This document shows, one piece after another, positions 1-39,191 of a stretch of DNA of 64,000 bases. This stretch comes from Iphione sp. A-MEVVRFRX5 (Eukaryota). The position numbers were made by a program, and so were the translations under genes. The DNA is taken from NCBI GenBank assembly GCA_976226885.1, contig CDNGLT010000002.1:1426001-1490000 (forward strand), in the 5' to 3' direction. The notes beneath the pieces were generated by a model. The model ran no database searches, had not been told where the DNA came from, and saw nothing but the letters and a program-made list of their open reading frames with translations. Positions within the stretch are counted from its first letter, which is position 1; each line of letters starts with the position of its first letter.

Positions 1-941
1 AGCACATTCTCAGTGTACATGAATTGTGCAAGAGCATGCTCGTAGTAAAATGTGGGGTCTCCGACTAGAACTTTTTCTCTTCCCCGTATTTTCTTTTGGA
101 CGTTGTGGAGCCCTACTCTTACCTGGTTCGGTGAGACCAAGGATCCCGGAAGTTTGCCTACTATTAGATCTCTAATACCTGATGTAAATTTAAGATACTG
201 TTCCCTGAGATCATGCAGATGTATAATTTTTAAGGTGAGTATAGTAATGTATGATTGAAGGTGGTACTCAAGGTCGATGTCCTGAGATTGGTTTATTAAG
301 ATTTTCGTCAGCTGTTTGTTAACCTGTGCTACACAATGTACTGACTGTAGTATTGCGTCATTCTGATATTGAACCTGCTGTGTTAAAGTTTGGATGGCTA
401 TGTTGGTTGTATTTGCTAACATTGAGAGTTGAGTTCTAATAGCATGTAGTTGTTCTTGACCTACTTGTGCTGCCAGAACATCTACTCTATGTGAGACTTC
501 TCTAACATCATCCTCGGTGGCTGTGCCAATGAGGAATTTAGAGGCGTCACCAAAAAATCCGAACCATGCTCTTGGCTGTCTACCTACTTTTTGTGATACT
601 GGTGCCATCAGAAGTGAATTAAGTTGGTTTTCCTCATGTCTAACAGTGTGAAAAAGATCTTGATAATACATTTTCATATCCTTTATGAGAATTTCTAGGG
701 TACGGCAGGATGGTCGGCGAGTGCATGGGAGCTGATCCTGTCGTCCAAATGTCGACATTTTTCTTTGAAGGAACGGTGCTGGTCTAGGGATGACGAAGAG
801 TAGGTCAATGCTTCTTGCATTGGCAAGGAGTGGGGTGGGAACTTTCTCATATATGACTCCAAGGTTTTGCCGAAGGATATAATTTGTAGGGTGTGTACCA
901 GGGATGAAGAAAATGAGGAGCAGCAGGATGAGCCCTCCCAT
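1..941 (-). CDS. env: Envelope/fusion glycoprotein of element A, N-terminal part (runs off window), baculovirus-F/errantivirus-type
   Basis: Not in ORF track. Open frame from ATG 941 (MGGLILLLLIFFIPG, signal peptide) to base 1, containing RQPR|AWFGFFGDASKFLIGTATEDD (basic cleavage site plus fusion-peptide-like segment). Aligns with B env RRPR|AWFGFLGSASKALFGTATMDD and FYYEHAL. Confidence 0.85.
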   Translation of the reverse strand, partial: MGGLILLLLIFFIPGTHPTNYILRQNLGVIYEKVPTPLLANARSIDLLFVIPRPAPFLQRKMSTFGRQDQLPCTRRPSCRTLEILIKDMKMYYQDLFHTVRHEENQLNSLLMAPVSQKVGRQPRAWFGFFGDASKFLIGTATEDDVREVSHRVDVLAAQVGQEQLHAIRTQLSMLANTTNIAIQTLTQQVQYQNDAILQSVHCVAQVNKQLTKILINQSQDIDLEYHLQSYITILTLKIIHLHDLREQYLKFTSGIRDLIVGKLPGSLVSPNQVRVGLHNVQKKIRGREKVLVGDPTFYYEHALAQFMYTENV

Positions 942-1101: not shown

Positions 1102-2924
1102 TTACTGCTTTATTATGTCATATTCCAGGCCGAGGAGTGTTCTTGCGAGGGCTTCCTCCATGGCCTGCTGCACTGCCCACAAGTTACGTAGGTGCCCGCC
1201 GTGGTGGTGTTGGGCACGTAGTGCGAGCACGCACAAATAGTTCCATGGTTTGTGGTCATCAGCTGGGATGGGTGGGTGGTACCCATTCTCCAAAAACTGG
1301 ACCAACCAGCCCCGGACACTCTCTGCTGTATTGGGCTGAGTCAGCCTTAGAGAAAGCGATGCGCTCACCCGGGCGGTAAGGTCCAATAGGGAGTCCATAA
1401 GGAGTGTGGGTGCATTGGACCAATTCTGAGGCATGTGGTGCTGCTGCGTGCCATCAGGTGCATGACCTGACCCGAACTGGATGTGGGGTTGGCGTCTGAG
1501 TGGCACACAGGGCTGGTTGTTACTGTGTTGTGTGAGACACCGCACACATATCTCGCGGCATTCTAATTCTTCTTGTAGATGGTTGAGGAAAGCCGCCTCT
1601 ACCTCTTCTGCCTTATAGGGGCGGTCGGGATAGTGCGAGTGGAAGATGCACACATGCTCCTTGCCACGCAGGACATCGAGTGCTGGCATATAATTTGTAA
1701 TTTCGTGACCTGGTTGCCACATGATGAGGGGGTGGGGGTTTTGATGGCGCGGTTGTGTGGGTGGGAGGAGAGGGGGAAGGTTATTTCTGGGGGTTCGACC
1801 AAGTCGCGGGATATTTTGGGTCCTGTTAAGGTGTTGGCGACTAGTATTGGGGATGCGGTAATTTTCTAGTGGTGGGAGTTCATCTTCAGAGGAGGGGGGG
1901 TTATCAGCCCTGTTCAGGGCCGCTGGTTGGTCTTCATCGGATTCTGATTCTAGGGGAGCGCGCCGGCGGCGCCTAGCGGGGGCTATAGACTCGTCATCTG
2001 AATCACTGGTGGGTGGTGGATAGCGGCGTTTAGGGAGGGTCGGTTGGTTGTCTGTGGCAGGGCTTCGAGGGCGGAGAGGAGTGTCAGCTCTAGGGCTGGT
2101 TGCATCCTCCTCCTGGGTGTCAGGGATCAGCAGGTGTCCAGTTGGAGCTGGTAGGGGTCCTGATGGATTTAGGGGGTTGGGCTGTTTGGGGGGTTTGCTT
2201 GGGGGGTGTCTTGTTGTTGGGTAGGGTTGATTAGGGATGTAAGGGGGTGGGCCAGAGTGACCAGTAGATTGTTCAGTGGTTGGGTAGTCGCCGTGGATTG
2301 GGGTGTGGGTTGCACTGCAGAAGCAAGAGGTTCACAGGGGAAGAAGGAGGATGGGTCAGTTTTAGAGGTGGAAGGCTGATGGGAGAGAGGGTGAGTGGTG
2401 GGGGTATTGAGAGGAGCCTCCGAAGGTAGGAAGGAGGATGGATCAGCTGTGGAGGTGGGGGGCTGGGGGGAGAGGGGGCGAGTGGTGGGGGCATTGAGAA
2501 GAGTTTCCGAGGGTAGGAAGGAGGATGGAGTAGCTGTTGATGTGCTCGGTTTAGGGGAGGGGGGACATGTTTGGACAGCAGGGATGGGCGGTTCTGAGGA
2601 AGGGGTGGAAGATGGGTCCGTGGTTGGCGTGCTTGGCTGAGGGGTGGTGGGTTGGGTGGGGGGTATAGAAGCAGGAGTTGTTGCCGGATCCGAGTTGGTG
2701 GGGTGACTTGTCACCCTTTCCATAAGCATTGCCATGTTGCGTATGAGGCCCACAAAAGCCGTGCCGGAGCTGGTGAAGGCATTTCTGACGGCCTTCTCAG
2801 CCTCGGCGAGGAGGGCTTCTGATACTCTGCGGCCGGCCATGACTGTAATGCTGTGCAGTGTGTCTGGAATGGTATGTAGTGTGTTTCTCATGAAAAGGTA
2901 TTTCAGTATAGTGCTTGTTGTCAT
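1102..2924 (-). pseudogene. Pre-env accessory gene of A: P/S/T-rich linker, RRRRR/acidic patch, CxxC-H-C motif, C-terminal accessory-family domain; one frameshift near 2170-2220
   Basis: The frame of ORF 1102-1722 is open upstream to at least 2220 (manual translation) and overlaps ORF 2169-2924. C-terminal half aligns with B 53845-54396 (W.YLC.LAL.AQ.HH.G.LR...A.QQA.EEA..RT..GLE.D). Confidence 0.75.
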
Positions 2925-3284: not shown

Positions 3285-3815
3285 TCAGGGAAACGGAGTA
3301 AACAAATGAGAAGTTTTATTGGTCAAGTTAACAATAGCAAAAACTGCATTATGAGACTCCCAGCCCCTTAAGTGCTTCCTGATCATGGTACACCACCAAA
3401 TCGCATCCTCTACACTTTGCGGCATGAGCGGCACGTGGAGTCTTTGTAAAGCGACTACACAGATCACATCCCAAGTGGGGAAAAAGTGGCATGGGAGATC
3501 TGGCTTCACTCCCATGCGGAGATAATGGAGGATTTCTTGTTTCAGGGCTAGCCTGACTAGTTCATTGTTCAGATCAAAGAAATTGTTCTTCCAGGCCGGC
3601 AGCAGGTGGCCAATCTGACATCTCAAAAAGTTTGAGGCTACCATCTGGAAGAACCTCAGTCTGTCCTGTGGGCTGACAGAAGGGTGTCTTAATCCTGTGT
3701 TTTTTCTAAAGAGGTGTTTTACCACCAGACCCCAGTGACAATCGAAGGAGGAGGGCCTGTCCCCGGCATCCAGCTCGGACCCCCGGCTCCTAGTGGTGAA
3801 TCCGCTTGCAGCCAT
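3285..3815 (-). CDS. Accessory-family paralogue A5 (176 aa, intact)
   Basis: Motifs DC..LF..TGLRHP..R..FFDL..LVRL..Y..KPDLP..FFPTWD shared with other copies; acceptor ttttttcaattaaattcag 4 nt before ATG. Confidence 0.75.
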   Translation of the reverse strand: MAASGFTTRSRGSELDAGDRPSSFDCHWGLVVKHLFRKNTGLRHPSVSPQDRLRFFQMVASNFLRCQIGHLLPAWKNNFFDLNNELVRLALKQEILHYLRMGVKPDLPCHFFPTWDVICVVALQRLHVPLMPQSVEDAIWWCTMIRKHLRGWESHNAVFAIVNLTNKTSHLFTPFP

Positions 3816-4139
3816 ACTACTGAATTTAATTGAAAAAAGGATCTTAGGTGTACTGCTTTCATTAGGGAAGGGTTCTTAGAAGAGTGCCGACTTTAGTGGA
3901 AAAGGACCTAACAAGGTATCAAAATTTATGGTGGGGGGTGGGGGCATAACGAGGTACTATTTCTAATGAGAGGGATTTAAAAAGATACAGAGTGTAATGG
4001 GGAAAAGTATAAAGGTACATTCTGAAATGGGGAGGGTTTGCAAAAAGGGGCAGAATTTTGAGTGGGGGAGAGCATAAAAGGGAGTCCTTCAAGGAAAAGA
4101 TGTGGAAATTACGTAACTAAAAGGGGGAAGACATAGAAG

Positions 4140-4505
4140 GTAGCATTTTCAATGGGGGAATGTCAAAGGTAACATGTAGCATTTTCAATGGGGGAATGTC
4201 CAAGGTAACATGTTCAATAGGGAAAGATGTAAAAAGTACTACTTTCAATGGGGAGAGATGCAAAAAGTACCATTTCCAATGGGGAGAGATGCAAAAAAGG
4301 TACTACTTTTAATGCCCAAAGTACTATTTTCAATAGGGAAAGATGTAAAAAGTATTACTTTTAATGGGGAAAGATGCCAAAAGTACCATTTTCAATGGGG
4401 AAAGATGTAAAAAGTACTACTTTTAATGGAAAAATATGCCAAAAGTACCATTTTCAATGGGGAGAGATGTAAAAAGTACTACTTTTAATGGAAAAAGATA
4501 TTGAC
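4140..4505. repeat. Tandem array, ~31-bp unit with 62-bp dimer structure, containing AAAAGTA(C/CT)ACTTTT-type palindromes
   Basis: aagtac recurs at 4381, 4412, 4443, 4474; degenerates toward ~3940. Confidence 0.85.
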
Positions 4506-4919
4506 AAAAAGAGGGGGGGGGGTAACCAGGGGGGCTGCTGGGGGGGGAATGGGGAATATAGGGGTGTATCTTGAAGATATGATATTTGGTAGGGGTTACT
4601 CCTGTGTTCCTGGGATCATTGTCGGGGGGGGGGGGGGGGTTAAAAAGGAAGCAAAAAGGGAGGTATTCAATAATAACAACATTTCAGGCAAAAAGCCTTC
4701 AAAAAGGGGTATGGTGGAGGAACACTTACTAGTTTGTGTGTGGAGAAGAAGTCTGGGAGGTGAAGATGTGTGGATGTAAAAGGCTTGATATCCCTTTTTG
4801 ATATAGCTTGTCCTGCTTTTTTTTTCCTCTTTTGAGATAAAAGGGTGCTTGTTTGAAGATGTCAGATGTGGTGTCCAAGGTGTAGGCCTAGGTATCAAAA
4901 CCCAGGCATAATTGTCCGA

Positions 4920-5107
4920 AAATCCGGAAAACTCAGGTGAATTCGTCCGAAAAGCGTCAAAACTGAGGTAATTTTGTCCAAAAATCCAGTGAAACTGAGG
5001 TGTTTTGTGTGAATATTTGCGAAATTGAGGTAATTTTGATTGAGTTTTGACCAAACTGAGACATTTTTGTGTGAAATTTGGAAAAATTGAGGTAAATTTG
5101 TATGAGA
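4920..5107. repeat. Left half of ~31-bp tandem array split by the ISL2EU-like element
   Basis: aa(c/t)tgag(g) at 4961, 4993, 5023, 5054, 5085; ends ggtaaatttgtatgag, continuous with the array resuming at 9367. Confidence 0.8.
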
Positions 5108-5302
5108 ATGGACTCATCGCCACCTTTCCACGAAGCGTAATTAGTCAACCAATGATATGCCTGTATGCCGGCATTTGAAGCAGTAACCAATCATATTGTT
5201 GGGAATTGCGACATTTGTCTCAAATCGCGGACTCCGTTTATTTACATTCATTTTATGGAGATGTGAGTGTCTTTCACTGCTCTCTTTTGAAGAAATTATA
5301 AA

Positions 5303-5912
5303 ATGGTGAAAACTTGCCAGTATGTTGGCTGCCGGTCAAACGATCGTCACCGTGATCGGCATGGAGGGAAATTAATTTTTTCGCGTTTCCCTAAGCCTTG
5401 GCGTGATAGAGAGAGATGTCTCTGCTGGATTTTAGCATGTCGGCAGCCTGCCGATAAACTGAACATTGAAAAAATCAGATATCATCGATACATTTGTTCT
5501 AAGGTGGGTTTTTCTGTGTGTCTTTACATGATTTGTATAGATATATATTTTTTTTGTATGTCCTACTGTCATTTATATTCCCGTTTCCTTGTTAGTTAGA
5601 ATGTATAATGTATAGTATTGTGTCTCCCGATCCTTTGTTTTGTGCTTGTATGTGAAAGGTTTCTTAATCTAAACTTTCAACCTAAAGTTACAAATTCAAA
5701 ATATGGTTGGCAGTAAGCAGAATTTACGTTAAATTTCTTGCTCGCTGTGAACACGATAGCACTTCAGAGGTGGGTGTGGATCGACGGATCTTAATCCGGT
5801 CCCGATCGATGCAAGAACCTTATGTCATTGCGGTGGAGGTGACGGGCCAGCTGCTACGAAGAGGACTAATGAACTAGCTATGATTCGGTACAACTCTATG
5901 TATAGCATTTGA
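5303..5912 (+). CDS. Spliced THAP zinc-finger gene (exon 5303-5503, exon from 5760)
   Basis: CQYVGC...FSRFPKP...RCLCWILAC...ICSK|gtggg; intron ends ag at 5758-5759 and the next exon reads HFRGGCGSTDLNPVP, completing the THAP CSKHF...P motif in phase 0. 3' extent uncertain (possible donor 5888, stop 5910-5912). Confidence 0.8.
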
Positions 5913-8169
5913 TTGTATATTTCAACGTTACCTTTTCTTTAATGTTCTGTCCACTTTCTGTAAGTGCGTCGTAAAGCGTAAAGATTGGCACGATGCGAGT
6001 CCGCTGCGTTTGTTTCTTTTTTTTGGAGGGGGGGAACGAAATACTGTAGAGATTCAACTGTAATGTTTTCTTTTGTGCCTCGTCGACTACCTTCAAATCA
6101 ATGAGTGAGAATATTACTGGCAATGCATTAAATGAAATGCTATGTAAATAGGCTAATAAATTCGTGAACAGATGTCACTCTATGTCACATCTGGGAAGAA
6201 GTAGGTCAAGCCATGTTTTGCCGTGGTTGCACACATGTTGGTAAGTACGTTTTACAAGAGTTCATTTGGAATTCCTATCAGTATAGAAACAATAATGCAC
6301 TATCTTGCTTTAAATGTTACTCATATTTTATACCGGGGAAACAAATAATACCGATATACTCAAACTCTGTAATGTGCTCTTATTTCCAAAATGGCGTTCG
6401 AGATATTGGATCTACTTGGACGTACTTGTATGTTTTCTTGCTAGCATGAATGAAGTTATTTGCCTATGTTTGAATGATTACTTGGTGGAGTATTTGTTAA
6501 AAATGATTCATCAAATGACAGTACTATTTCTTTCGGTATAGGTTTTCATGATGCATTCTATCTTAAAAACGACAATATTCTCACACACTTGACTTGTTAA
6601 ACAGATAAACTTGAAGACCAGTAGAAACAGTTTTTAAGATCACAAGCATTTTTTTATTTAAATTTTTTTATTATTATTGTTGTCTCGTCAACAAAACTGA
6701 AGTTTTTCCACCGATGCAAAATTAAAAAGTATTTACGTTAAGACAATATGCATTTCTTTGCAAATAAAATCCCATGTACTAAGTGTACATGTTACAAAGC
6801 AACTTTGCACATTCTCGGTCTCCGGAAGATCTTGTGCATTCTCTCGAAATCAGTACAGATTACTGCAACGTGCTTAAACTATATGTGATAACTATCTCTA
6901 AAGAATGAGTCCTCTGTTCATTACGGATATCTGTTATGTCAGAATTCCTTCGCACTTGTCACAATAACTTCTTAGGTGACTGTGTAGACTGTAAATCAGA
7001 AAGACATAAGACTCATAAGCTTGACATGCTTGCATCTTTTAAAATTTACAACGAATATTTAGTCAAAGAAATTTTAGGATTCCAAAATGGTAATGAAATA
7101 TTTTTTTTTTGTTTAAATACTAACTTTCCGTCATGAAGTTATCAGCACATATTGCATTGTCGTTCTGAAGACATGGTCTTTGTTAAAATTTGACATTTGA
7201 CATTGTTATGCAGAAGTATCTCTTTCTTACATTATCTTGATTAAACAGCAATAAGCAAGCAAACATTTCCTTTTTTGTTCTTTTTTTTTATTACCTTGAT
7301 TTTTAATATTTTCTTCTTAGCCTCGATTAGTAACATTTAAAACTTAGCGGTACGTTGTAACATTAGAACAATGTAGTTGAAATGTCTTAAAAGTATAATT
7401 CAAAATCAGGAACGGTAAACTCAAACGAAATTAAGATAGTTGCAGTATTACAGATCCCCGACGAGGTTACTTTCCAGCAGCAGAACGCACTGTACAAATG
7501 CAATTACTTTTAGAACCAATGCGTTTCATTCTCAGAATAAAGGAGTCATTTGTAACATCAACCCCATGCTATACGAATATGTCATAATTAATTTGAATGT
7601 AACATAATTTAAATTTTGTGTAAGTGCATCAATTTTTGTTTGCTATGTCTCGCTCAATGCATAACATATTGTCATAATTTTAATCAACGAATGCATTCAT
7701 TTTTCCTTAGATATATATTTTGTTGGTTTTTTTACATTTAATTTATTTCAAACGATTCATTTGATTAAAACATAAATAAGCATAAATTTATGAAATTTTG
7801 TTCAACAAAATTAGTTATGAAACAGAAATCATAAGATGAACAATTGAATGAACAATATAAATTTGACATGTAAACATGATGCTGAATATAGCATTAAATT
7901 CGAAAATAACAATATATATGGAAACACACCGTCATGGAAGACAATCACTTGAAGTGGCGATTGAGATGGCAACATACAAATGGGGTGCCATTTCTGAAAC
8001 GTATTTGATTTGATATGGTTAGATACATACATTGTAATATGGAATCCAATGTAATACTGCTCCATAAGAAAATTGGAAAGCTTCAGACTATGACAGAACG
8101 CCTAACATTGAGTTAGGAATTGTAAATAAGGTTGACATTTTGTCAGACACTGAACAACATTTAGAATTA

Positions 8170-8320
8170 AGAAGGAGAGAGAAAGAACGAGAGGGAGAGA
8201 GGCATGGAAGGAGAGAGAGGGATGGAGGAAAAGAGAGATGGATGAAGGAGGGAGAGTGAGGAAATAAAATGAGAGGTGAAGGGAGGGAGAGAGACAGTGA
8301 GAGGGAGAGGAGGAGCAAGT
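8170..8320. repeat. GA-rich low-complexity tract
   Basis: Purine-only gaga/ggag runs; produces spurious Leu/Ser ORFs. Confidence 0.8.
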
Positions 8321-9366
8321 GTGACCACCCGGGATGATATAACAGGGGGAATCAATGAGTACTAGATAACTTTTCACAAAGAATTAACCCTATACAGGCG
8401 GAACCTGACGATACGTCATGGACTCACAGGGCAGGGTGAATTTTGATGTTTTCATATAGAGGGCGGCACACTATTGTTGTGTCAATTTTTTATTAACGGA
8501 TGTTTAGTTGTGTCAAAACCCTTCTAAATGTATACTTTTCAATTGTCTAAGGAGAATTGAAGATGCACATTTACTTATGAAGGTATTTAGAGCATAACTA
8601 TGGATTTATTTGGGAATATTGCTTTGAATTAGATATTAGATAGGTAATTCACTTCGTATGTCAGCAGTTTCCGGTCTAGACACAGGGAAATGTGAGTTTT
8701 CAAAGGAAAATGAAATGTTCTATTCAGAATTCATTATTTCTGTATATATCCGAATAAAGTATGACTCTTTTTGTATATTGTCTCCAAATCTCATCGAAAT
8801 CCATGCAGTATTTGTATGTTAATTCATTGTAGACGCACTAAAAGTTGACAAACCCCGTGTAGCGGCTGGTGCCAGACGTTTGATAAAATATATCCAGTGG
8901 GACATGATATACAGCCGGTCTCCTGTAAAGAATACCGATCATACTCAGGAGGAGTCCAGGAGTAGCTAGTAAAGCATTAACAAGAATTCATATATGAATA
9001 ACGAAGCAATTAAATGCATTTCTTGGATTTGGTGTGTTGATCCCCCCCGTGTACATCGGAACTCATGCCAGCTTGTTCGCCACTACTGCGTGTCTGTGTT
9101 ATCTTACAAACCCATCAAAAGAAAGCAATACAATTAACAATACAACAATAAAATCGTGCATGTAATGTTGCCTGCTACTTACTTACCAGAAAATTGATAC
9201 AGAATAAGGTAAATATGCACGGTCCACGAGGTTACAGACCACTTCACAGTTACAAATATGACCTGCTTGTCTTGTACATACCTCGCACATGTCAATTACG
9301 TCATTTAGCGCCAAAAATAGCGTCGCATTCTGATTGGCTAACCGATCGCAGTGGCGATCGGTCCAT

Positions 9367-9570
9367 TGGCAAAGTCTAGGGGTTTTTGACTGAGTTATGA
9401 CAATATCTGGGTAAATTTGTATGAAATTTGGCAAAAGCTTATGGGTTTTGTGTGAGTTATGACAGAATCTGGGTAAATTTGTACGAAATTTGGCAAAAGT
9501 TTATGGGTTTTGTGTGAGTTATGACAGAATCTGGGTAAATTTGTATGAAATTTGGCAAAAGTTTTTGTCT
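9367..9570. repeat. Right half of split array; 62-bp unit (two 31-bp halves), ~3 copies
   Basis: gaaatttggcaaaag at 9423, 9485, 9547. Confidence 0.85.
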
Positions 9571-9594
9571 GTGGATATATATATATATTTTTGG

Positions 9595-9973
9595 GGTGTG
9601 CCAGTAACTGTGTCACCATGACAAGGGTGTCCCATGCAGGCAGGAAGCGTGTCAGGAGGTTTGGCTCCCTATGGGTGTGAAAATAGTTCACAACCAGTTG
9701 TATCACCCCCAGTTGTACGAGGGTGCAGTTTAGGTTAAAGAACCGCCCCTCCTGCCAAGTGGGCAGGATGACTCCCATGTGAGTGTCAGTTACTCGTGCT
9801 AATCTGTCTAACATCCAGAATCTTTCCGAGGGGGTGACGTTAGGGTGCCAGATCCCTGTTTTCTGGCCAAATAATACACTAACAAGGGCGGGATCACAAT
9901 CCGCAAGGGTTGGCTTGTCTCTGTGCAGAATGGATTGGGCCCTCCTTGTGGCTCTGGCGTAATGCCCCATCAT
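9595..9973 (-). pseudogene. Accessory-family paralogue A4, C-terminally truncated
   Basis: DCDP..LFGQKTGIWHP..FFNL..LVQL..Y..REPNL..FLPAWDTL; homology stops at ~9597 where the frame runs into the tandem array. Closest to A3. Confidence 0.8.
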
Positions 9974-10348
9974 GACCTAGAGTAAGAGTGATTAGAAAAT
10001 AACAACTCCTTGCTTAGGGAATTCTGGGTGTGGAGGGTGGATGGGTGGAGAGTGGCGTGAAGACCAGCGCGGTCATGAGGTGTGCACGTTCTAAACCAAA
10101 ACATTATATGGGAGTGGGTGCATGAGACTAGGTGGAGGGGGTTGGCAGAGGGTCAGAGCACCTAGGGGTTTCTACGTCAGTTTTTGATAACACTTAGGGT
10201 TGGCCTGTTTGAGGTGTTGTGTGAATCCTGGGTAGATTTTTGGCGAAACTCAGTATAGACATTAACTGTTGGTAGATTTGTGGTTTGTGAATAATTTTAT
10301 TGTTATTTCTCTAGAATGTCAGTTATTTGTTGATGTAATGTCAAGTAT

Positions 10349-10885
10349 TTAATCCCAGATTTCTAGATCTGGTGGTGTGATGGGTCTACCCACCATTAGG
10401 AGGTCAGTCTGTAGTGGTGTGGACGTGTAGCAGTGCACGTATGCATGTACTGCCTGTCTGGCCGCCTCTCTGTGGGGGTCTAGGTTGTAAGGGCCGATTG
10501 GCCAGCGCTGAAAGTGGTTCAACACGACCATCACAAGGGCATCCCAGCTGGGCAGAAAATGTTCCGGTAGGTTCGGCTCTCTTCGTGTCTGGCAGTAGGT
10601 TACTAACAGCTGAACCAGGCTTATCTGCACAAGGGGGGAGTCCAGATTGAAGAATTGGCTTCCCTGGTAGCCAGAGAAGACAACTCCCATGTAGGTATCT
10701 GTTGTGAAGGCCAGCCTGTTCAGCATAAGGAATCGTTCCAGGGGTGTGATGTCAGGGTGGTGGAGCCCTGTTTTCTGTCCAAAGAGTGCCTTGATGAGGA
10801 CCGGTTCGCAGTCCACAAGGCCCGGTCTACTGCCCTGTAGGATAGCTTGGGCTCTCATGGTGGTTCTTACGTAGTGACCAGTCAT
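10349..10885 (-). CDS. Accessory-family paralogue A3 (intact)
   Basis: DCEP..LFGQKTGLHHP..FFNLDSPLVQI..Y..REPNLP..FLPSWDAL..REAA..IWD*. Start placed at 10885 (MTGHYVRT matches A4 MMGHYARA; acceptor AG 10890-10889). AATAAA at 10301-10296. Confidence 0.8.
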   Translation of the reverse strand: MTGHYVRTTMRAQAILQGSRPGLVDCEPVLIKALFGQKTGLHHPDITPLERFLMLNRLAFTTDTYMGVVFSGYQGSQFFNLDSPLVQISLVQLLVTYCQTRREPNLPEHFLPSWDALVMVVLNHFQRWPIGPYNLDPHREAARQAVHAYVHCYTSTPLQTDLLMVGRPITPPDLEIWD

Positions 10886-11039
10886 ATTCTGAAGTAGATA
10901 TTTGAGAGTCATATCAAACTTCTGTGGGAGGTGTCTAAGGTCTAGAGGAATGATGGGTGGGGGGGTGGCTTGGGAGTTGAGGATGGGATTTCAGGGAATC
11001 TTGTTGCCTTCGTTATTGGTATATGCTGAGGGTTCCTCC

Positions 11040-11594
11040 CTAAGGGATGTTTGTGGTCGTATCCCACTCATCGTCATCGTAGGTGGGTGTTGGGGGGTAC
11101 AGGCCCGCGTCTAAGAGGTCGTGGTTAACCATGTGTACAGATGAAGTTTTTTGCATATATGTGCACTACCCTTTTACTGCAGCCTCCTGCACGTGATCTA
11201 TGGCCTGTGACAGTCGGGATTTCATCCGCAAGGCTCTGAAGGCCTCTACAGCTAACTGGTCCCATACTGGACAGAGGTGTGCTGGGAGCAGTGGTTCTTG
11301 GGCAGTCCTGAGGTAACGGGCGAGGACCTGTACGATAGAAAGCTGCACCAAGGGTGAGCCTAGGTTTAGGAGTGTTCATTCCCAGGGGAGAACAACTGTC
11401 CCAAGGGAGTCAATACGGCTCGCAAGGTGCTGCAGTAGCTCGTAGCGCCGAAGGGGTGTGACCCTAGGATGACGTAGGCCCTTGTCAGGCTGGTAGAGAC
11501 CCAGGGTCAGGCGTGATATGCAGTCCTTGATCTCAGGTATTGCTCCGTCTTGAAGTTCCCCAAGTCGGGCGGATACTTCCTCATAAGTATTCAT
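11040..11594 (-). pseudogene. Accessory-family paralogue A2, 185 codons with two in-frame stops
   Basis: Single frame: DCIS..GLRHPRVTP..PWE*TLLNL..LVQL..EPLLP..PVWDQL..EAAVKG*..YDDDEWDT; stops at 11376 and 11166. Confidence 0.8.
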
Positions 11595-13278
11595 TTCTGC
11601 GGAGGAAGGGTAGAGATCTTACATCTGGTGTGGTGGATGAGAGTTTAGAGGCAGCTATTCGTGGGTGGGGGTTAATTGGTTGCCACCTAAGTTCTCTCTC
11701 TGAGGAGTTTCAGGGATGGGGGGGTCGTTTTATCTCTTGATATTACTGGTAGGTTTAAGGTCATAAGGAAGCTTTTTGGTGTGGGTTTTTGGGGTCATTA
11801 GTGGCCAGTGTTAACCCAGGGATCGAGGTTGTTTAGATGAGGTCATTTGTTTACATGATAACAGCTGTGGTCTGGTGAAAGCGTTTTGGAGGAAAATACG
11901 TGGCTGGAATGCACGCGTGTCTTTGGCCGCGGGTGATTGAGTTGATCATTTGAGAGGGTGCAACAAGAGAGGGCAGTCCAGCAAGGTCACAAAGGAGAAA
12001 AAGGATTATAGACAAAGGATCGAGTTGTTGGGAATTAGTGACTGCCATGATGGCAGCATTGGTGTTTGGAATGCGTAGACACGTAATCAGGGAGGATGTT
12101 CCTTTGGAGGGTAAGTTTACTTTTTCCACCCAGGTAACTTTCTCTAAGAAGGAGGTGAGGATGAGGGGCCTTGCTACTCTCTGTCAGGCCGATGGGTAGA
12201 GGGAGGTGGGGTGGGGGCTGCCACTTTACTTTGGTGATAGTTGTTATTAATGCTGCTTTGCTAATTCATCCCCTATTACAATTTGCAGAAGTTGTGGTGA
12301 TCCTGAATGCTGGGAGCAGGATTCATAGGTGGCACGTAGGCAGCGAGGTGCCAGATAGGACAGACCGAGAGGTCGACTGATCTCTGGGCCGTATCGGATG
12401 CATGTGATCCCGGTGGTTTTGTATTAGCCTAGTTTTGTGACGCCTTCTCAATATTAATAGTGTGTTTTATGGGTATAAATACTTTTCTTGTAAATCTGTG
12501 TCCCCCTTTTTTTTTGTGTTCGAGTTGCCACTATGAAAGATGAATTATTCAAAGATCGTATTGCTGAGGTTCTATAATTTTCTTCCTTAAGATGTGTACC
12601 GTTCATATAAAGTCAAGAGTCTTCTTGATGCTAATAGTTTATTACCATAAGGCCCATTAATAACTCTTCTACATTTGACTATAGTATGATTTGGGTTATT
12701 TAAATGTCTATGTAGAGGAATATCGGATCCCATCACCATAAATAATATTAATAAGTGTTATACGTCGAGTATTTTGATAATACACATAGGATTGTATATA
12801 TGTTGATAATATTGCCAAAGAGAGTAGCCATGTTCATAATTCTACAGTGTCCCTCAGTCTCGCATTGCTGGCGCAGAGACATTTGACATCACTATCAGAG
12901 GAGCCTCACTGTCTTGACTCCGACGAAGTGGCTACCCTCTGGAAGAAGGGCTGTAGTGGTAAGTGTTGCCCCATCTTGTGGTGGGGTGTTCACGTCCGGT
13001 CACAGATGGTGGCCAGGTGTTTCTTTTCGCACGGAGTGACTCCCGATTGACATAGTGAGTCCTTTCACTATTACTAATTCTACAGTCACTACAATGTTTT
13101 CTTGGGAGGTCTTGTTGTCCAGGGGCATTTCAGATTTGTCAGTGAGAGTTCATTCAGAACTCTGCGCTATGTGGAGATTCGAATTCCCATTCCTGTTCCA
13201 CGGGGAGGGGTAGGATGGGGCGGTTGCTTTTGATGGCGTCAGTTGATGAGAACTCGGCGGCCAGAGAGTCGACTGCTA

Positions 13279-14205
13279 CTAGGGATGGGGTGCTTGCATC
13301 TGATGACATCGGTTGATGGGGGTTTGGCGGCCAGAGAGCTGGGGGCTAGTCGGGTGGGGCTCCAGTATGTTGTTCCAGTGCGATGGGTGGGCTTGCGTTT
13401 CTTGTGCCACCTCAGAGCGTGAGAGCGACGATGGGGGGTCTGGTGAAACCCAATTTCTTGGGGGACAGTGTTGCGGCGCTTGAGTGATGAGGATCGGTCT
13501 GAGCAGGGACTGGATTCTCCCCGGGGACCGGGTTGTTGGGGCGGCCCGTGGATGGGTAGGCCTGGCGGGGCGGGGTGTGGTATCCCGGGAGGATGAGACA
13601 TCCCTCTGGGGTGAGCCATCCCCGCGGGGTGAAGTATCCCATCGGGGCGAGATATTCCCATGAGATGGGGTATCTTGGCGGTGTGGGTAGTGCATCTTGG
13701 GATGTCGGTACAGGTTGGCTGTCAAAATGTCCATGCGTGCAGGTATATGGGAGGTCCTCTTCATGTATTTCCTGAGGGCCCTCACGGCTGCTTCTCTGGC
13801 CTGACTCGTGGCCAGAGAGAGCCCAACAGTAGATCGAAACTCTGCAAGGGCCACGGTAACAAGACTGTCCCAGGCGGGGTAGTACTTGGGCAGTATGGGA
13901 GGTGTCTGATGGTCCTTGAAGTAGGCCATGAGCATGTCGACCACCGTAAGCTGGGCAATTGGGTATTCTAGGTCCTAAAAGTTGCCTTTCCGAGGATGAA
14001 GCACTGTGCCCACTGCTTCTATGGTGTAGGAAAGGTGCCACATGAGCTCGTGTCGATACCCATCTGTGACTCTGGGATGGCGGAGCCCTCTGTCGGATTT
14101 GAAGAGCTCGGGGGTAAAGGCCGGGATGCAGTCTCCTGGGCTCGGCAGCGCCCCCTGGAGAAGGAGTGACTGCCGCTCTTGGATTTTCACATACCGGCCC
14201 GCCAT
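13279..14205 (-). pseudogene. Accessory-family paralogue A1 with C-terminal (S/T)PR-repeat tail; internal stop at 13975
   Basis: GDCIP..LF..GLRHPRVT..NF*DLEYP.AQL..Y..PPILP.YYPAWDSL..REAA, then ISPRWDTSPRGDGSPQRD..TTPR. Confidence 0.8.
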
Positions 14206-15682: not shown

Positions 15683-18600
15683 TCAGATTAACCTCTGGGA
15701 ACCTACTGGGGGTTGCTTGATGGTATTGGATTCTGAAGAGGTTGGATTAGGCTCGATGGTGATCTTAGTATCTTTTGGAGTGTCATCTTGGTTGGCTGGT
15801 TCTATTAGGATCTTGTCTGGGTTGGGAGGTAAGTTGAGGCGCCCCAGTCTTACAACAGGGTCAAGTTCACTTAGCCCCACCTCTATCTGACATGGGCGTC
15901 GGGGGGCAATAGGGAGATGAACTTTTATTTTCAGGGGGTGCTCGGATCTTAGCTGCTGATGTGGGTCATCCCCTACTTTATCAGAGACTGCATCTTGAGC
16001 TTTGCTTAGTGAACGTGTCACGGGTCCCTCTGTTCGTGTCATGGGGACTTCTGGTATAACAGGCATGGAGAACTCTGAGGGGGCCTCAGATTTCTCTTCA
16101 GAGAGGGCAGGGGACTCACTAGAAGACTCGGAGTCTGAGAGTGGGGGAGAAGTGGGAGAATTGGACCGAGATGGAGCTGGGGGGTCGGAGTCTTCACTTG
16201 ATACATCTTGGGTTATTGGACAATTTGCATTGTGGAATGATCTTACAATAGGATGGGGGCGTTCATGTAAATTTTGTGAGGTAGAGGGAGTCTCAAGGGG
16301 AGGATCCTCATTCTGAACAGGGGATGAGACATTTTGCGAGGGTTCTTCTGTGATGGTGCTCATAAAGGGTGCTAGGGCTTTCAGAAGCCATTGTCGTCGT
16401 GGGGGAAGGGACTTGGGCTCATCAGAGGAGTGAGTCTTTTCAAAGCTGTCAGGGGGGAGGTCTTCAGGTGATATGTCATCTTCAGGAAATTCCTCGTTGG
16501 TGCTAGGGATAGCAGATATAGTTTTCTTTAGCCGGCTGATAGTGACTGGTCTGGCAAGATGCCTCTTGGTTGAAGGCATTTCAAGAAGACAGTGGAGTCA
16601 GTCTGAAATCGGGTAATTGCATAAGGTCCATGGTAGACCTTGGCAAGTTTAAGTTTGAGCGAGCTATCCTTTAATTTAGGCATGTATACCCATACTACAT
16701 CACCTACCTGGAGATCTAGCTTATAGGTGTGCTCATCGTGTATTGCCTTCATGGCTAGGGCATATCTTTCAGAGGTCTTTTGTGCAGCTTGATGAGCTTC
16801 TTGTTGAGCCTGCAAATGGTTTCCAAATCTCTGTCGGGTGTCCATTAATTCATCTTCTGAGATGGGAATGGAGTTCATTTTGGGGCGGCGGGGTTCATAC
16901 CCATTTAGGAGGAGATAGGGGGTTTGGCCTGTGCGGGTGGCCTTTGTGGTGTTTAAAGCGAAGCATATTCCAGGAAGGTAACAGTCCCAGTTGTTTTGAT
17001 CTTTGCTAACATAATTTCGTAAGACTGTCAGAAGCGAGCGGTTGGCCCGCTCAACCAAGCCTGAGGTCTGGGGATGACCTGCCGTAGCAAATTTCTGTTT
17101 GATTCCATTTTTCCTACAGTAATTCATATACCTATCTGAAATGAAGGCTGAGCCATTATCTGAGACTATAGTATTGACTACACCAAAACGGTAAACAATA
17201 GGTTCTTTAAATTTAGAAATAAGGGTGTATGCTCGGAGATCAACTTGTGCCCATGCTACTAGGAATCAGCTATGATAGTCTACTATAGTAATGATATGTC
17301 GGTTTCCTCTTTTTTTGAGGGGGAGTCTTTCTATGGCGTCCATATTAATGGTATGCCATGGTGCTGGCGTTGGATCTCTTAAGGTCAGAGGAGGTCTTAT
17401 AGGACGTGTCATACGTTTGGTTTCGGAGCATTTGATACAAGTGGCGCAGTACTCATGCACATCCTTGCTCATTCCAGACCAAAAGAGTGACTCCCTCATT
17501 CTGGTAAGCATTTTTACTGGGCCCAAGTGTCCTGCGTGTGGAGGGTCATGTTTCTGTTGGAGAAATTGTTCCCTAAGTCCCATGGGGACAACAAGTCTGA
17601 CATTCATTCTAGCATTAGGTCCAGTGGTTGATAACATCTTAAAGAGAAGCCTTTTGTAAAGAAAATAGTCCTCTTCATGGAGCAGAATCTCACGTGCCAA
17701 TTTGTCATCCATAGGGAGTATCCCATATTTGATGAAGCCAACTGTTTGTTGACAGAAGGTATCATCTTTCTGCTCCTTAAAGAGATCTTCAATGGGTATG
17801 TGTGATGAGTTTAGATGTTTCTCTGCCCCAGAATGGACGACAAATTGTCTTTCCCTTCTCTTACGGTGCTTAGGTTTGTTAAGGAATTGGGGAGTGCCTG
17901 ACTTGCCAGTGGTATAAATAGCATTTGCTTCTACAGGTCTGAGAGTTTTATCTCTGGGCTTCCTGCCAGTAGGAACATAGGGAGGTTCTTTGTCAGGAGG
18001 GGTGTCAAGGCGAGAGAGGGCATCAGGGACATAATTGGAGATCCCTGCTACATGTTGGACAGTATAATCAAACCGTTGGAGGAATTCCATCCATCGGATA
18101 ACTCGGCTCTCCTTGTGCTCTAAGGATTTTGTAACCAAGATATGAACGAGAGGGTTATGGTCAGTTCGGATGGTGAACTTGGCTCTTTCTAAATAAACTC
18201 GCCAGTGCTTGACTGCATAAAAGACAGCGGCCATTTCCTTGTCTGTTGTAGAGTAATTGAGCTGGGCTCCTTGAAAGGCTTTAGCCCAGTAAGCTATTGG
18301 TCTAAGACTTCCTTCCCAGTCTTTTTGTGACAGGCTGGCGCCCATTCCATAGTTACTGTAGGTCAGTGGCCAAAAAGAATTCATCATTAAAGTTTGGGTA
18401 AAGAAGAAACTGTTCATTGGTCAGAGCTTCCTTAAGTGTTTGGTATGCCCCCTCTTGTTCAGGCCCCCAAAAGAATTGGGCACTCTTTCTTGTTAAGTCA
18501 TAGAGGGGTTTAGCTTTAAGGCCATAGCTGGGGATAAATTTTTTATAATAGCCAGTCATTCCTAAGAATCGGAGTACCTGTCGGACTGTGGTTGGAGTTT

Positions 18601-18872
18601 TCATTTCTTTTATTTTCTGCGTATTGTCAGGAGAGGGCATAATGCCTTCAGTGGTTATAATATGACCTAAGAACTTGACTTCTGACCGTCCGATCTCACA
18701 TTTAGAGGGCTTGAGTTTAAGTCCTGCCTCGATTAGTCGGTCCAAGACTTCTCTAAGGTCCTGCATATGTTGCTAAAATGTGGGTGAAAAGATTACTATA
18801 TCATCCATATACGCCAAACAGATCTTATAGTTTAATCCTGACAGAACTAAATCCACTACACTTTGAAAGGAT
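15683..18872 (-). pseudogene. pol: pol of A, 3' part: RT (YMDD), RNase H, integrase, Ser/Pro-rich extension
   Basis: SFQSVVDLVLSGLNYKICLAYMDD at the junction with C; RNase H YGMGASL..PIAYW..EMAAV..TDHNPL; HDPPHAGH..CIKC; SDNG..GLVERAN; YHGPYAI. Several stops and frameshifts. Confidence 0.93.
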
Positions 18873-26918: not shown

Positions 26919-26927
26919 TGTACAAAG

Positions 26928-28931: not shown

Positions 28932-28951
28932 GTGGGACCTTTATTTTAACC

Positions 28952-30038: not shown

Positions 30039-30607
30039 TGTAGCACAAAAGCAAACACCGCTAGTCAGGTTCGAGTCAGCCTTTATTCTTCTTCAGCAGT
30101 GATACAGCAACCGTCATCGTCAACAGCAACTGGGGCGAGTCCGAATAACCCTTTGGACTGCCAAACATATATACCCAACTGGACCGGATGCGGTCGTTTA
30201 TTACAAGTCGTTCTCTCAATGGGTCGTTAAAGTTTTACACACTTGACATCATTGACACTTTTGTCCAGGGTCGCGCTCAGGCACCGGATACAACACTTAT
30301 CTTGTTATGGCGCCGCGACACCATGTGAACTAAGTAGACTTTTAATGGTTTGGATTTCAATTACTTTCACAGCCCATAGGAATAATTGCAAAGCGCACGA
30401 AAGACGTCACAAACAAATTTTTCACTCAGTACTTATAGTTACTTCACATAAGGCTTTTACTTGTATTCTGTATATCTGTACACTATACATACGTTGCAAT
30501 GTTCCATACTCATGCTGTACGATTAGCCATATACATTTTATTTCCCAATACATCTATAAGGCAGAGTCTTGTCTTGATACGGTACCATATAACACCACTG
30601 TGTTACA
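30039..30607 (-). repeat. 5' LTR of element C (569 bp)
   Basis: TGTAACAC...GTGCTACA on the minus strand; pairs with 18873-19444. Confidence 0.96.
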
Positions 30608-30611
30608 GGAT

Positions 30612-32598
30612 GCTGGAGAATTTTTAAGACCCATAGGCATAGTTTTGTAGCGGTATTTTCCTGAAGGGGTGAGGAAGGCTGTCTTATCCCTGTCTTCATC
30701 ATGAATAGGGATTTGATGGAAGCCCATGTCTAAGTCCATCATGGAAAGAAATTTAGGTTTGGTGTGCCCAATTGCGTCTATAGTATCATCTACGCTGGGG
30801 ATAGTAAACACCTGTGTGACTGTTTGTGTATTTAGATTTCTATAGTCAACTACTAATCTGAATTTTCCATTAGGTTTTGGCACCAGAAAGGCTGGGCTAG
30901 CCCATGGGCCGTCCCCTGCTCTTTCCAGTATATCTTTTTCTTCCTGATCTGCTACTATTTTGTCAAGTTCCTCCCTCATTCGGGGGGACATGCGGAAGGG
31001 CTGTGCCTGTGTTGGAGAGTGGTCTGGCTTCAATTCAATCCTATGTTCTACTAAATGGGTCCTTCCTATGTCTCCTTGTAAGACAAATGCTTCTCTCTTG
31101 GATAAGAGGAGATTGTGACAAATTGCCTTTTGTTCATGAGTAAAATTGGAATTAGATAGGTCAACTGGTATATTCAAAGAATTGGTGTTGAGGGAATTTA
31201 TTTGTGTCTGTGCAGGTGTGATGTTTGTGTAGGGGTTTCCCTTTGTAAAAGTTCCTACTCGAAGTCCTTTCTTTCGCTGTTCTGGGTGAGAGGAGTAATT
31301 TAAAATAGAAATAGGGATACGGTTGTCTACAACTTTCACAATAGCTTCCTTATTAGTTCTAAAGCTCCGAGGGGTACATGACAAAGTGTCTGTATACAGG
31401 CCTTCGTAGGAGTCTAAGGAATCCCCCTTCCAAAGGATTTGCCCCAACAAGAGGGTTTCTGTGCCAGGTTGAAGAAGAGTATCCTCAGGAAGGGCAACAG
31501 AGTATTGGGTAGGGGATTTCAGGCCAAAGGAGAGGTTCATGGAAAATTGATGCAAAAATGATTGACCTAGGATGATGTCATAGGAAAGTCCAGGAACCAC
31601 ATGTAGGGAAACAGGGTAGGTACTATCATCTATGGGGATTGGCAGGTGAACTGTCCAGGGAGATCGGGAAACCATCCCATTTGCCATAACACATTCTGTT
31701 TTAGAGGGGAAAAGGCGTATGAGGGCCCCACCATTCTTTAACTGGTTAAGGGCTTTTAGGCTCATACAGCAACCTTCTGCTCCTGTGTCTACAAGGGCTG
31801 TTAACACAAGGCCTTCTATAGGGATTTCAGTAGTGCTATTGCCCGTCAATGAATGAGGAAATCAACTCCCCATCCCCAGCAGTAGTTTTACTCATTCTAG
31901 ATAAAAGGATCTCTTGGTTAGGTATATGCCGTGAATTGGCAACAATAGAAAAAATTTCTTTTGTTTTTGGAAGAAAGTTAAAGTCCATATAGAGCTGGTG
32001 ATGTTCTATTTCTTCAGGGAGGATCCAATGTTCACCATGCAGAGGACAGGCAGGCACCCTATTACATCTAGGTTTAAGTGTTTCTCTATTGATTTCCCTA
32101 CTCCAGTATGAGACCTGTCTGGTTACACATGCTTCTAAGGTTCCACAGTCTGGAACATCACAGGTACCGTTCTGGTGTTCTAATATTCTCTAAACTATTA
32201 ATACATAAGCCATCAACAATTGCACAATCACATTTCATTTGGATAGATAAATCAGGCTTAAGCTCAGAAATGCATATACATCGGTTAGGACAATGAGTAC
32301 CTCTATGACCATTGTGGACTTCTACAGTGTAGTCCACAGTCTTAGCTTGAGTCTTTTTCTGGGAAGGCTTCCCTGGGCAGAGAGGATGTGATTTCAGCAT
32401 TGTATACACAAGGTTCTTAACCCAACCCAAGTTTTCCTCAGGTAGATGAGGGTAAGGTTTAGATAAGATTATACACAAAAATCTCTTCCCTGGTTCAGGT
32501 GAACCAGAGTCCTTAAAGTTTATTTTGGTCCCTTTGTCTGTACGGGATGTCAGTGACTCCCAATACTTGGGTGATTTGGGAGTCTGGTCTAGTTTCCC
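30612..32598 (-). pseudogene. pol: pol of A, 5' part: Cys-rich domain, protease, RT N-half
   Basis: CPNRCIC..KCDCAIVDGLC..CPLHGEH; LVDTGAEG; WASPAFLVPKPNGKFRLVVDYR..MPMGLKNSPAS. Confidence 0.92.
32555..32598 (-). promoter_or_regulatory. Putative -1 ribosomal frameshift signal, A gag/pol
   Basis: G GGA AAC TAG (32598-32589), 7-nt spacer, 9-bp stem GACTCCCAA/TTGGGAGTC; the -1 frame reads GKLDQTPKSPKYWES into pol. Confidence 0.8.
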
Positions 32599-33452
32599 AG
32601 GTGGGGGAAATTGGCCCCACTGTAGCGCTCATGGTCCCCACGGGTCCGTTCTATCGGACGGATTCTGGGGACGCCTTTATCTTCCCATGTCTGTGGGGGG
32701 GGGGACGTCTCAGTGGTTGAGGGGAGGTGGACTGGTAGGGCTGGGATTGAGGGCCCCTACGAGGAGGGTGATACTCTTGCTGACTGCTTTGGGAATATTG
32801 GGGCCTTCTCCCCCGTGGTCCTCTCCCTCTTTCAGAGTGTTGTGGAGGAGGGCGGGCACGTTCTTCCATGTCCCGTCTCTTGGTGCAACATTCCCTAGCA
32901 TAATGTCCCCTTTTCTGGCAATAATAGCAGGTTAGGTTGGAATCAGGAGGTAAAGGTTCTGACACTGGTTGGGTTATGTTGGGTGGGGGACGGGTGGTAC
33001 CCCCAATTGTCCTCAATGTAACTGCTGCTATCTTACTGGGGAGCTCTTTCATTAGTTCCCTTTTAAGGGCATCTACTACTGCCTCCATTTTCGAGATCCT
33101 TTACGGAACCCTCCCTGGGCATGCCATGCTTCTCTGGCATCCTTAACCGCCTTATCAAAAGAGGGGACTGTCCGCACCTTCATAGTTTCCCTTAGTTCTG
33201 GGAGTATATTTTCCATAAAAATTCTTCCTGCCATTTCATCACTATCGCGCCCTGCAGCCATACACACTTTCATGAGCCTATCTGCAAACTCACAGGGATG
33301 TTCATCTGGTCTCTGTTTAGTGACACGAAGCCTATCACCTAGTTCTACTGGGGGCGGTCCCTTTTGCTCTATCAAAAATTTCCTTAGCTCATCCCAAGTG
33401 GGGTGGGGCTCTATATAGAGGTGGGCAGTGCGGGGTAGGAAGGTTCATGCCT
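32589..33452 (-). pseudogene. gag: gag of A, C-terminal part
   Basis: TFLPRT..TWDELRKFL..KQRPDEHPCEFADRL; CYYCQKRGHYAREC; aligns with B gag. Confidence 0.88.
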
Positions 33453-37712: not shown

Positions 37713-37983
37713 ACGCTCGATAACAGTGTTCCTTCCAACCATCCCGTGGTGCAGCACCCTGTTCTCCCTCTTGAGGATTGGGATTCTCTTCCCCATAGAC
37801 ATCCTTAATGTAGTCCTCATACTGGTGTACCCAGTCTACTAGAGTCAGTCTTTTAGCAAATGCTTCAATCATACCCTCTTCTGCCATGTTTCTTAATGCA
37901 CATTGCCCTTCCCTAGCATTTATAAGGTTAGCACTTACTGGTTGTCGAGTCGGGTAGGATGGTGTATGCTGGGGTGTACGCAT
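37713..37983 (-). pseudogene. gag: gag of A, N-terminal part
   Basis: MAEEGMIEAFAKRLTLVDWVHQYEDYIKDVYG aligns with B MAEGDVVEALAKRL..DWVHRYEEYMKAIYG. Confidence 0.82.
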
Positions 37984-38790: not shown

Positions 38791-39191
38791 TTGCAGAGAT
38801 GTGGGTTATGATTGAGGCTGGATTTCTCTGATGGGGAAGTTTTGGAGAGTTGATAACTTAACACATCAGAGGGAATCAGCTGCCGGCGACCATCGTTCTC
38901 CCCTCCAGGATCGTCGACGCCTCTTCAACTCTAACCCCGACACCGCCCCGACCAACTACCTCTACACCAAAGGCACCGTCACCCATCTTCCCTGTTGCAT
39001 CCTGACGATCCCTAACCCACCCGGGATCCTCTACTCCAATCCACACCCAGGAGAACAATCAGCATCAACCAGGCTCATCGAGATGGTCATTGACACCACT
39101 GCTTCCTGTCCAGCCAGCAGCTGTGCAGCCAGCACCACCAGTAAATCCAAACCTTGTTAATCTTGTGGGAGAAAGAAACCAACGTAAAAGA

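Follow-up and report, generated by a model that had tools for sequence, protein, structure and literature searches.

A 64,000-nucleotide stretch of the genome of Iphione sp. A-MEVVRFRX5 (assembly GCA_976226885.1, contig CDNGLT010000002.1, positions 1,426,001 to 1,490,000 of the forward strand; hereafter the window, with coordinates counted from its first letter) is a nest of decayed mobile elements, two of which, elements A and B, carry a family of seven paralogous genes between pol and an F-type env, five in A (A1–A5) and two in B (B1 and B2). Judged by sequence comparison this is a new orphan protein family, outside the known protein families that were searched, and its copies are very probably element-borne accessory genes. 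Accessory open reading frames (ORFs) between pol and env are already known; what is new is an orphan protein family set in a gypsy layout resembling that of the complex retroviruses. The evidence for strict linkage of the family to this pol comes from the two elements of a single window.

The initial annotation of this DNA had described a motif shared by all seven copies, and both the copies and their coordinates hold (Table 1). Pairwise identity among the copies is 23–57%, and all 21 pairs exceed 200 shuffles (Z 18–87). A profile built from any six copies finds the seventh at 90–157 bits, compared to ≤4.4 bits for 100 shuffles each, and at E ≤1.7e-20 when scaled to 1.84 billion proteins, such that the alignment, for which a profile had been proposed as the check, is statistically significant. 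These shuffles and leave-one-out profiles are the independent tests of homology, as the profile run over the six-frame translation of the window was trained on the copies themselves. That profile search (2576 segments) and tBLASTn within the window returned the seven copies, the half-domains of two genes preceding env (pre-env) and nothing else; of the 14 segments at E ≤0.001, the seven copies account for 13 and the pre-env gene of B for the other. All window matches lie inside A and B, with none in the nested element C, the long interspersed nuclear element (LINE) or the flanks, and the earlier description of an unrecognised, soluble, element-borne paralogue family stands.

Numbered from the second Met of A3, ten residues are invariant in all seven copies (R11, P21, D25, C26, L34, L81, Y97, P104, P112 and D115) and four more in all six copies that have the residue (G40, H43, R51 and W114). 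The C-terminus is less constant. A Trp-Asp pair occurs in four of the six copies with a C-terminus and has acidic neighbours in three (A2, A3 and B1), while the tail of B2 is acidic but Trp-free, and A5 lacks a tail of this kind; an acidic Trp-Asp ending, previously said to occur often, applies to half of the complete copies. Only A3, A5 and B1 are open frames (3/7). A3 has an additional upstream ATG at 10912, and the homologous part of A1 stops near 13633, after which the frame continues as a Pro-rich tail.

The copies keep the same position, strand and order in A and B, between pol and env, in an interval of 9.7 kb in A (with a later insert removed) and 9.4 kb in B, and the strand bias of the element continues through them. 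The two elements are collinear from leader through env, with A on the minus strand, starting from its gag ATG (37887) and continuing past the left window end within env, and B on the plus strand from its gag ATG at 39192 to the env end at 56810. Based on their pol sequences, A and B are sister members of an env-bearing Ty3/gypsy lineage: the integrase regions are 77% identical over 350 columns with sister support of 100/100, and both fall in one clade with three pol proteins (P0001–P0003). The Pfam architecture and all 29 pol matches are gypsy-like, with the pol tree built without retroviral references. In both elements pol has the order protease (PR), reverse transcriptase (RT), RNase H and integrase (IN), with a gypsy-type RNase H and an H2C2 integrase. 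Pfam places the protease of B from 40956, RT from 41730 and integrase from 43817, and in A recognises RT, RT_RNaseH (E 1.4e-29) and Integrase_H2C2. A gag precedes pol, marked in A by a zf-CCHC match at 32654–33088 (E 1.5e-5) and in B by collinear gag blocks.

Synonymous sites are saturated in all 21 copy pairs (proportion of synonymous differences, pS, 0.65–0.86), with a lower proportion of nonsynonymous differences (pN 0.26–0.58), including for the closest pair, A3 and A4 (pS 0.71 vs pN 0.26). This points to old paralogues under purifying selection, and such selection would in turn mean that the copies have been translated and maintained. Between A and B, pN is 0.11–0.22 for pol, 0.22 for gag, 0.39 for env and 0.43–0.46 for pre-env, placing the copies among the parts that change faster than pol and about as much as env and pre-env. 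The comparison of synonymous and nonsynonymous change proposed earlier was computed; with synonymous sites saturated it gives no evidence of episodic positive selection either way, and the suggestion that the family is rapidly diversifying is unproven, as selection looks purifying. A3 and A4 are mutually closest, as had been noted, at 57% identity and with the only supported fork in the tree (95/91). The duplication within A drawn from this pair is likewise unproven, for the tree does not allow it to be placed later than the divergence of A from B. Nor does the tree pair copies of A with copies of B as orthologues, and tests of B1 with B2 and of three groupings across the elements decided neither way (approximately unbiased test, p-AU 0.21–0.31).

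A sixth form of the family occurs in the pre-env genes, which carry only its C-terminal ~80–90 residues. The pre-env C-termini had been credited with the shared motif; this stands for the C-terminal part and not for the whole motif, and the half-domain of A is a weak match when taken alone. In B the half exceeds the best shuffle against 6/7 copies, compared to only 3/7 in A, where the window profile gives E 0.82. The link between the pre-env gene of A and the family is made through its homology to that of B (42% identity, Z 40) and through the profile-profile match of the pre-env half to the family (probability 93.9, pairwise E 1.6e-7). The A protein consists of a Pro-rich and acidic disordered part with an Arg run, a Cys/His module (C-x2-C-x3-H-x5-C) and then the half-domain, and the Cys/His module is kept between A and B. 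Each pre-env frame is overlapped by a Pro-rich ORF. The N-termini of these ORFs are unrelated between A and B and their phase relative to pre-env differs; the two frames may formerly have encoded one long protein, or may be spliced together. A conserved programmed frameshift between them was considered and rejected, as the phase change is unequal in A and B. Downstream, the env of B scores above the curated cut-off for Baculo_F, and the env of A is by itself without a Pfam hit.

The splice signals, which the initial annotation had overlooked, are the best clue to how the copies are expressed. An acceptor-like site, defined as a pyrimidine tract followed by YAG, lies 2–4 nt before the start codon in 7/7 copies (2 nt in A2 and B2; 3 nt in A1, A4, B1 and, before 10885, A3; 4 nt in A5). 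In A3 this rule is passed by the second ATG, which is the start codon homologous to those of the other copies; the first fails, and its use would reduce the count to 6/7. Similar sites lie 6 nt before the ATG of both env genes and of the Pro-rich ORF of A, and the rule is not passed by the gag ATGs, the first ATG of the Pro-rich ORF of B or the internal ATGs of the pre-env frames. As background, the post-pol regions contain 374 other ATGs on the sense strand, 21 of which have such a site; across five settings of the rule 21–65 of the 374 pass, and Fisher p ranges from 5e-9 to 7e-6, values that flatter the case because the rule was formulated after the sites had been noticed by eye. A candidate major splice donor precedes gag in each element, scoring joint top among 48 GT sites in A and fourth among 26 in B. 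Splicing of env from a donor near gag is reported for the Tor3a element (PMC4402516). The copies are thus likely to be separately spliced accessory genes, and the simplest reading of the signals would be a complex-retrovirus layout, with a single donor and many acceptors. Trans-splicing at these acceptors would be an alternative to one-donor cis-splicing.

The protein itself is predicted to be a soluble, all-helical domain. A3 was modelled with AlphaFold from an 11-row alignment of unbroken stretches, giving seven helices (residues 2–16, 28–34, 48–61, 66–71, 84–100, 113–127 and 137–155) and a disordered tail (159–177). The best model has a predicted local distance difference test score (pLDDT) of 79.5 and a predicted template modelling score of 0.72, with the five models spanning pLDDT 62–79.5; the model of the pre-env protein is poor (pLDDT 38.9). 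Weak structural matches divide near residue 62, which suggests two subdomains; the pre-env genes would then reuse the second. No internal repeat was found (N vs C half, profile probability 0.09). As claimed earlier, the copies have no membrane segment (best 19-residue hydropathy 1.09–1.42) and no catalytic motif was recognised; Pfam and NCBIfam gave no catalytic family, and the PDB sequences gave no match (best E 0.2).

Searches for homologues were uniformly empty. None of 21 candidates from a protein search with A3 alone was confirmed, nor any of 2120 with the 11-row alignment, and the full HMMER scan, the only search to cover longer or fused forms, found nothing at E ≤0.001 among 1,835,955,588 proteins, using a family profile that leave-one-out tests indicate is sensitive enough for relatives at the distance of A5. 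ORFs of animal transposons are sparsely represented in these libraries, and absence from them is weak evidence of rarity. Nothing reached the curated cut-off in Pfam, 0/11 rows matched NCBIfam, and PHROGs returned nothing for five family and pre-env proteins. In the ESM Atlas A3 had low recognition, with unrelated bacterial clusters, and the pre-env protein of B had nothing. Pattern matches in GTDB genomes were confirmed in 0/61 and 0/79 cases, and 0 of the 29 related pol proteins are fused to the family domain. At the level of structure, Foldseek found nothing at E ≤0.001 in PDB or in BFVD, and the best of 48,161 chains compared by VIA-align (Z 5.2, root-mean-square deviation 4.0, 88 residues aligned) is under the level that the tool considers meaningful. 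A known host or viral domain, which would have changed the interpretation, was therefore found in none of Pfam, PDB, BFVD, VIA-align or Foldseek, and on the model the domain may be a new fold. Matches of residues 1–63 to helical-repeat RNA-binding proteins (Z 4–4.9) were not taken as evidence.

Duplicated, separately spliced accessory genes occur in pairs in vertebrate retroviruses, where lentiviral Vpr/Vpx and OrfA/OrfB of walleye retroviruses act as adaptors to host proteins. Neither pair was matched in the Pfam, PDB and BFVD searches, and no cyclin, the fold of the retroviral OrfA/OrfB (a cyclin box with two internal repeats), is among the fold matches listed. By analogy, the main job of the proteins described here may be that of host-binding adaptors, a reading that is favoured tentatively and at a little under an even chance. 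It is favoured because duplicated viral accessory genes usually act as host adaptors and a set of divergent copies would fit a set of different targets. In addition, the Trp-acidic tail of three of the six complete copies resembles docking motifs, among them the kinesin-binding motif of vaccinia A36 (PMC9659004). A single transcript would be spliced from the donor upstream of gag to the acceptor before each copy and before env, and each paralogue would be made as a separate soluble intracellular protein, outside the polyprotein and the envelope. The proteins would be non-enzymatic, with the conserved two-subdomain helical body binding a host target, the paralogues having drifted toward different targets, and the disordered Trp-acidic tail recruiting host machinery. 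Overall, this would weaken restriction or silencing by the host and ease the passage of the element's RNA and particles through the cell. The analogy to function is the weakest step of this explanation. It is rather unlikely that A and B represent a missed animal lineage of 'complex' gypsy viruses, with lentivirus-like splicing and a duplicated one-domain arsenal of new fold whose paralogues suppress piRNA or other silencing.

Several observations, in addition to the after-the-fact acceptor rule, weigh against this account. Four of the seven copies are broken, and they come from just two elements, both fossils. Alignment of the leader DNA around the two candidate donors does not outscore shuffles (26 vs a best of 30). 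There is no sign of the positive selection expected of an arms-race factor, although saturation removes the power to see it. The core (first 150 residues) is mildly basic in 6/7 copies (isoelectric point 7.9–9.6), which also fits nucleic-acid binding, and a part in catalysis or metal binding is conceivable for the invariant Cys, His and Asp. Lastly, the acidic Trp tail is found in only 3/6 complete C-termini and is single, while the kinesin-light-chain-binding motif of vaccinia A36 is described as bipartite (PMC9659004).

The foremost alternative is that the proteins, and the pre-env member above all, are regulators of the element's own RNA in the manner of Rev or of CERV from the Caenorhabditis elegans element Cer1, binding the RNA and steering its splicing or export. 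With eight or more acceptors, unspliced genomic RNA would still need export, and gypsy-type Cer1 is reported to make CERV from a spliced message and to require it for export of genomic RNA (PMC10309623). CERV is also described as having a Cys-rich loop and no homologue outside nematodes (PMC10309623), and here the pre-env member has a Cys/His module and acidic patches, with an Arg run in that of A, and the cores are basic and conserve Arg or His at three positions. However, one export factor would suffice, which makes a set of five paralogues difficult to account for. The short copies, all seven, have a single invariant Cys and lack a Cys finger or an Arg-rich stretch, and the PDB, Pfam, 1.84-billion-protein, BFVD and VIA-align searches listed nothing that connects them to CERV or Rev by sequence or fold. 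This possibility is considered somewhat unlikely as the main role, though it and the adaptor role are not exclusive and can coexist across paralogues.

An analogy to VANC proteins, suggested by the initial annotation, would make the copies anti-silencing factors that recognise a specific DNA sequence, repeated in the element, and keep its chromatin open. As a precedent, a Rev- or CERV-like role is no more remote than this one. VANC action is reported to require a short motif that recurs in the element (PMC6719617), and a 16-nt palindrome, with a strand bias matching the leader of A, occurs at least 21 times at 38054–38752, with three related hairpin repeats at 14916–15259, directly upstream of A1. 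Several points count against the parallel: VANC belongs to plant DNA transposons and A and B are gypsy retroelements, no DNA-binding family or fold was matched (Pfam, Foldseek against PDB, VIA-align), no such palindrome array was seen in the leader or pol-env interval of B, and the palindromes may be RNA packaging hairpins or an unrelated satellite. No homology to VANC was detected in 1.84 billion representatives or in Pfam, libraries in which the presence of VANC is unchecked, and the reading is considered improbable. The array has features of its own: part of it lies in a 176-nt higher-order repeat, and no other part of the window is as dense in hairpins (35 per kb). The repeats between the pol of A and A1 are 67 nt long, with a hairpin core that resembles the leader palindromes.

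A role in structure or assembly, with matrix- or tegument-like accessories linking Gag cores to Env membranes or to motors, is quite improbable. The copies adjoin env and share its expression route, and the Trp-acidic tail could engage kinesin, but the copies have no membrane segment, no capsid or matrix fold was matched (Foldseek against PDB and BFVD, VIA-align), and element C has an F-type env without a copy of the family, such that this type of env does not require the paralogues. Least probable is that the copies are passenger DNA, captured host gene fragments or small insertions of no use to the element, as might be supposed in a graveyard of transposons where no LTR pair fixes the borders of A or B and where acceptors before an ATG are also known from host genes and trans-spliced operons, for they hold the same position, strand and order in two elements with saturated synonymous sites, their coding regions are intron-less and share the strand bias of the element, and no host homologue appeared in the A3, 11-row-alignment or full HMMER searches.

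Several known systems share parts of this organisation. The 'ancient errantiviruses', env-bearing Ty3/gypsy elements, have the same CCHC gag, PR-RT-RNase H-IN order and downstream baculovirus-F-type env (PMC13524379). In the methods described for that survey, a pol-env gap of ≤1000 nt was applied to non-insect genomes, with regions of 10 kb, and ORFs were annotated up to 3000–5000 nt away for some phyla (PMC13524379). A and B differ in their 9.4–9.7 kb gap with its paralogue array, and since this exceeds the survey limits, layouts of the A/B type would probably have been filtered out. The fish foamy-like elements AciFLERV and AliFLERV, likened here by description, are ~17 kb long and are reported to have pol-env accessory ORFs of unassigned function and a paralogous pair, acc1a/acc1b; they belong to the Retroviridae, and their paralogues number two at most and are located after env (PMC5512871). 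CERV is likewise an orphan accessory protein of a gypsy element with a spliced message and a Cys-rich module, but is described as a single protein of 517 residues that has exons in common with gag and a G-protein-like domain (PMC10309623), whereas the A/B family is a ~180-residue helical domain in multiple copies after pol. VANC21 and VANC6 of Arabidopsis are element-encoded accessories whose short motif is repeated in the element, but the elements are plant VANDAL (Mutator-like) DNA transposons, the target is DNA methylation and there is one gene per element (PMC6719617). The large gypsy elements Burro and Ogre and the ORF3s of bdelloids have extra coding sequence, some of it between pol and env or spliced; as described, these extras are captured BIR, MATH, GDSL or DEDDy domains or one to two unknown ORFs, and not a self-duplicated orphan family (PMC6431247, PMC5408684). 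Among the titles and abstract openings searched, with Repbase, Dfam and subscription journals outside that scope, no description was found of a gypsy element with a paralogous spliced accessory array.

Table 1. Features of elements A and B (positions in the window)
Feature	Position	Strand	Remarks
A1	13279..14205	-	In-frame stop at 13975-13977
A2	11040..11594	-	In-frame stops at 11376-11378 and 11166-11168; acidic Trp-Asp tail
A3	10349..10885	-	Open frame, 178 aa from the second (homologous) ATG
A4	9611..9973	-	121 homologous residues; truncated by an unrelated insert at ~9610
A5	3285..3815	-	Open frame, 176 aa; most divergent copy; without acidic tail
B1	46450..46998	+	Open frame, 182 aa; acidic Trp-Asp tail
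B2	47169..47739	+	Frame-shifting deletion near 47285; stops at 47470-47472 and 47605-47607; acidic tail
Pre-env of A	1102..2331	-	409 codons stop to stop; Cys/His module; family C-terminal half at ~1105-1395
Pre-env of B	53533..54396	+	287 codons; Cys/His module; family C-terminal half at ~54121-54393
Pro/Ser/Thr-rich ORF of A	2169..2924	-	Overlaps the pre-env frame in another phase
Pro-rich ORF of B	52854..53753	+	Position equals that in A; overlaps the pre-env frame
Env of A	1..941	-	Runs off the window; 44% identical to env of B over 243 codons
Env of B	54650..56810	+	Baculovirus-F type (PF12259, E 1.1e-9); broken near start
Candidate major splice donor of A	37933..37941	-	51 nt before gag ATG; 6/6 intron-side bases canonical
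Candidate major splice donor of B	39138..39146	+	51 nt before gag ATG; 5/6 intron-side bases canonical
Gag and 5' pol of A	30554..37887	-	CCHC knuckle, RT; gag split by LINE-bearing insert, pol split by element C
3' pol of A	15683..18870	-	RT end, RNase H, integrase, low-complexity extension; frameshifts and a stop
Gag-pol of B	39192..45293	+	Protease, RT, RNase H, integrase; broken

A and B are fossils, lying head to head with a gap of 1.3 kb (37887–39192) and with both 5' ends lost. Self-BLAST of the window found no pair of long terminal repeats (LTRs) for either element, only those of element C, and the borders of A and B are for this reason inferred from collinearity; the 3' end of A falls outside the window. 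A is interrupted by element C, by the LINE in its gag and by a ~5 kb stretch bearing a THAP domain. Element C (18873–30607) is a gypsy element with 572-nt LTRs (18873–19444 and 30039–30607, 95% identical), an F-type env and a pol unrelated to those of A and B, and contains 60-nt and 50-nt tandem repeats at 26874–27621. The LINE (34266–36976, minus strand) has an endonuclease and RT. The AT-rich insert at ~4600–9610, which truncates A4, holds a THAP-domain ORF (5303–5599, plus strand) and similar direct repeats near both ends, and no terminal inverted repeat was found in it.

Within the pol-env intervals, 5.1 kb of B (47750–52850) is without a recognisable gene, has four ~114-nt repeats at 49573–50462 and may hold decayed accessory genes or another insertion. 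The 1.7 kb spacer between A1 and A2 (11600–13280) contains a 110-codon open frame (11851–12183, minus strand) with no recognised counterpart. The pol of A (32191–32500, minus strand), of B (40391–41100, plus strand), P0001 and P0002 share a Cys-rich region of ~250–300 residues before the protease that has no Pfam match. P0001 has an additional long insert between RNase H and integrase, and a short segment at the C-termini of P0001–P0003 is chromodomain-like by eye, with no Pfam hit and no match within the window at E 1e-4. To the right of B (59176–64000) there are short ORFs, three of which were scanned with no Pfam match, and tandem repeats of 60 nt and 120 nt. Rfam and tRNA scans of the window were empty.

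Gypsy elements are usually drawn as gag-pol, with or without env, and large accessory sets are ascribed to the complex retroviruses. The lineage described here has up to five paralogues of one orphan domain and a sixth, fused form in a 9–10 kb interval between pol and env, and should intact copies elsewhere agree, a complex-retrovirus organisation would have arisen independently in the Metaviridae. The relevant passages of a 2019 review note no described transposon anti-silencing proteins directed at the pathways of piRNAs or of KRAB-ZFPs (PMC6719617). The intact A3, A5 and B1 are direct test material for retrotransposon counter-defence or RNA-export factors in animals, and if suppression of piRNA or other host silencing proves to be their role, the family would be an animal transposon-encoded anti-silencing protein family.

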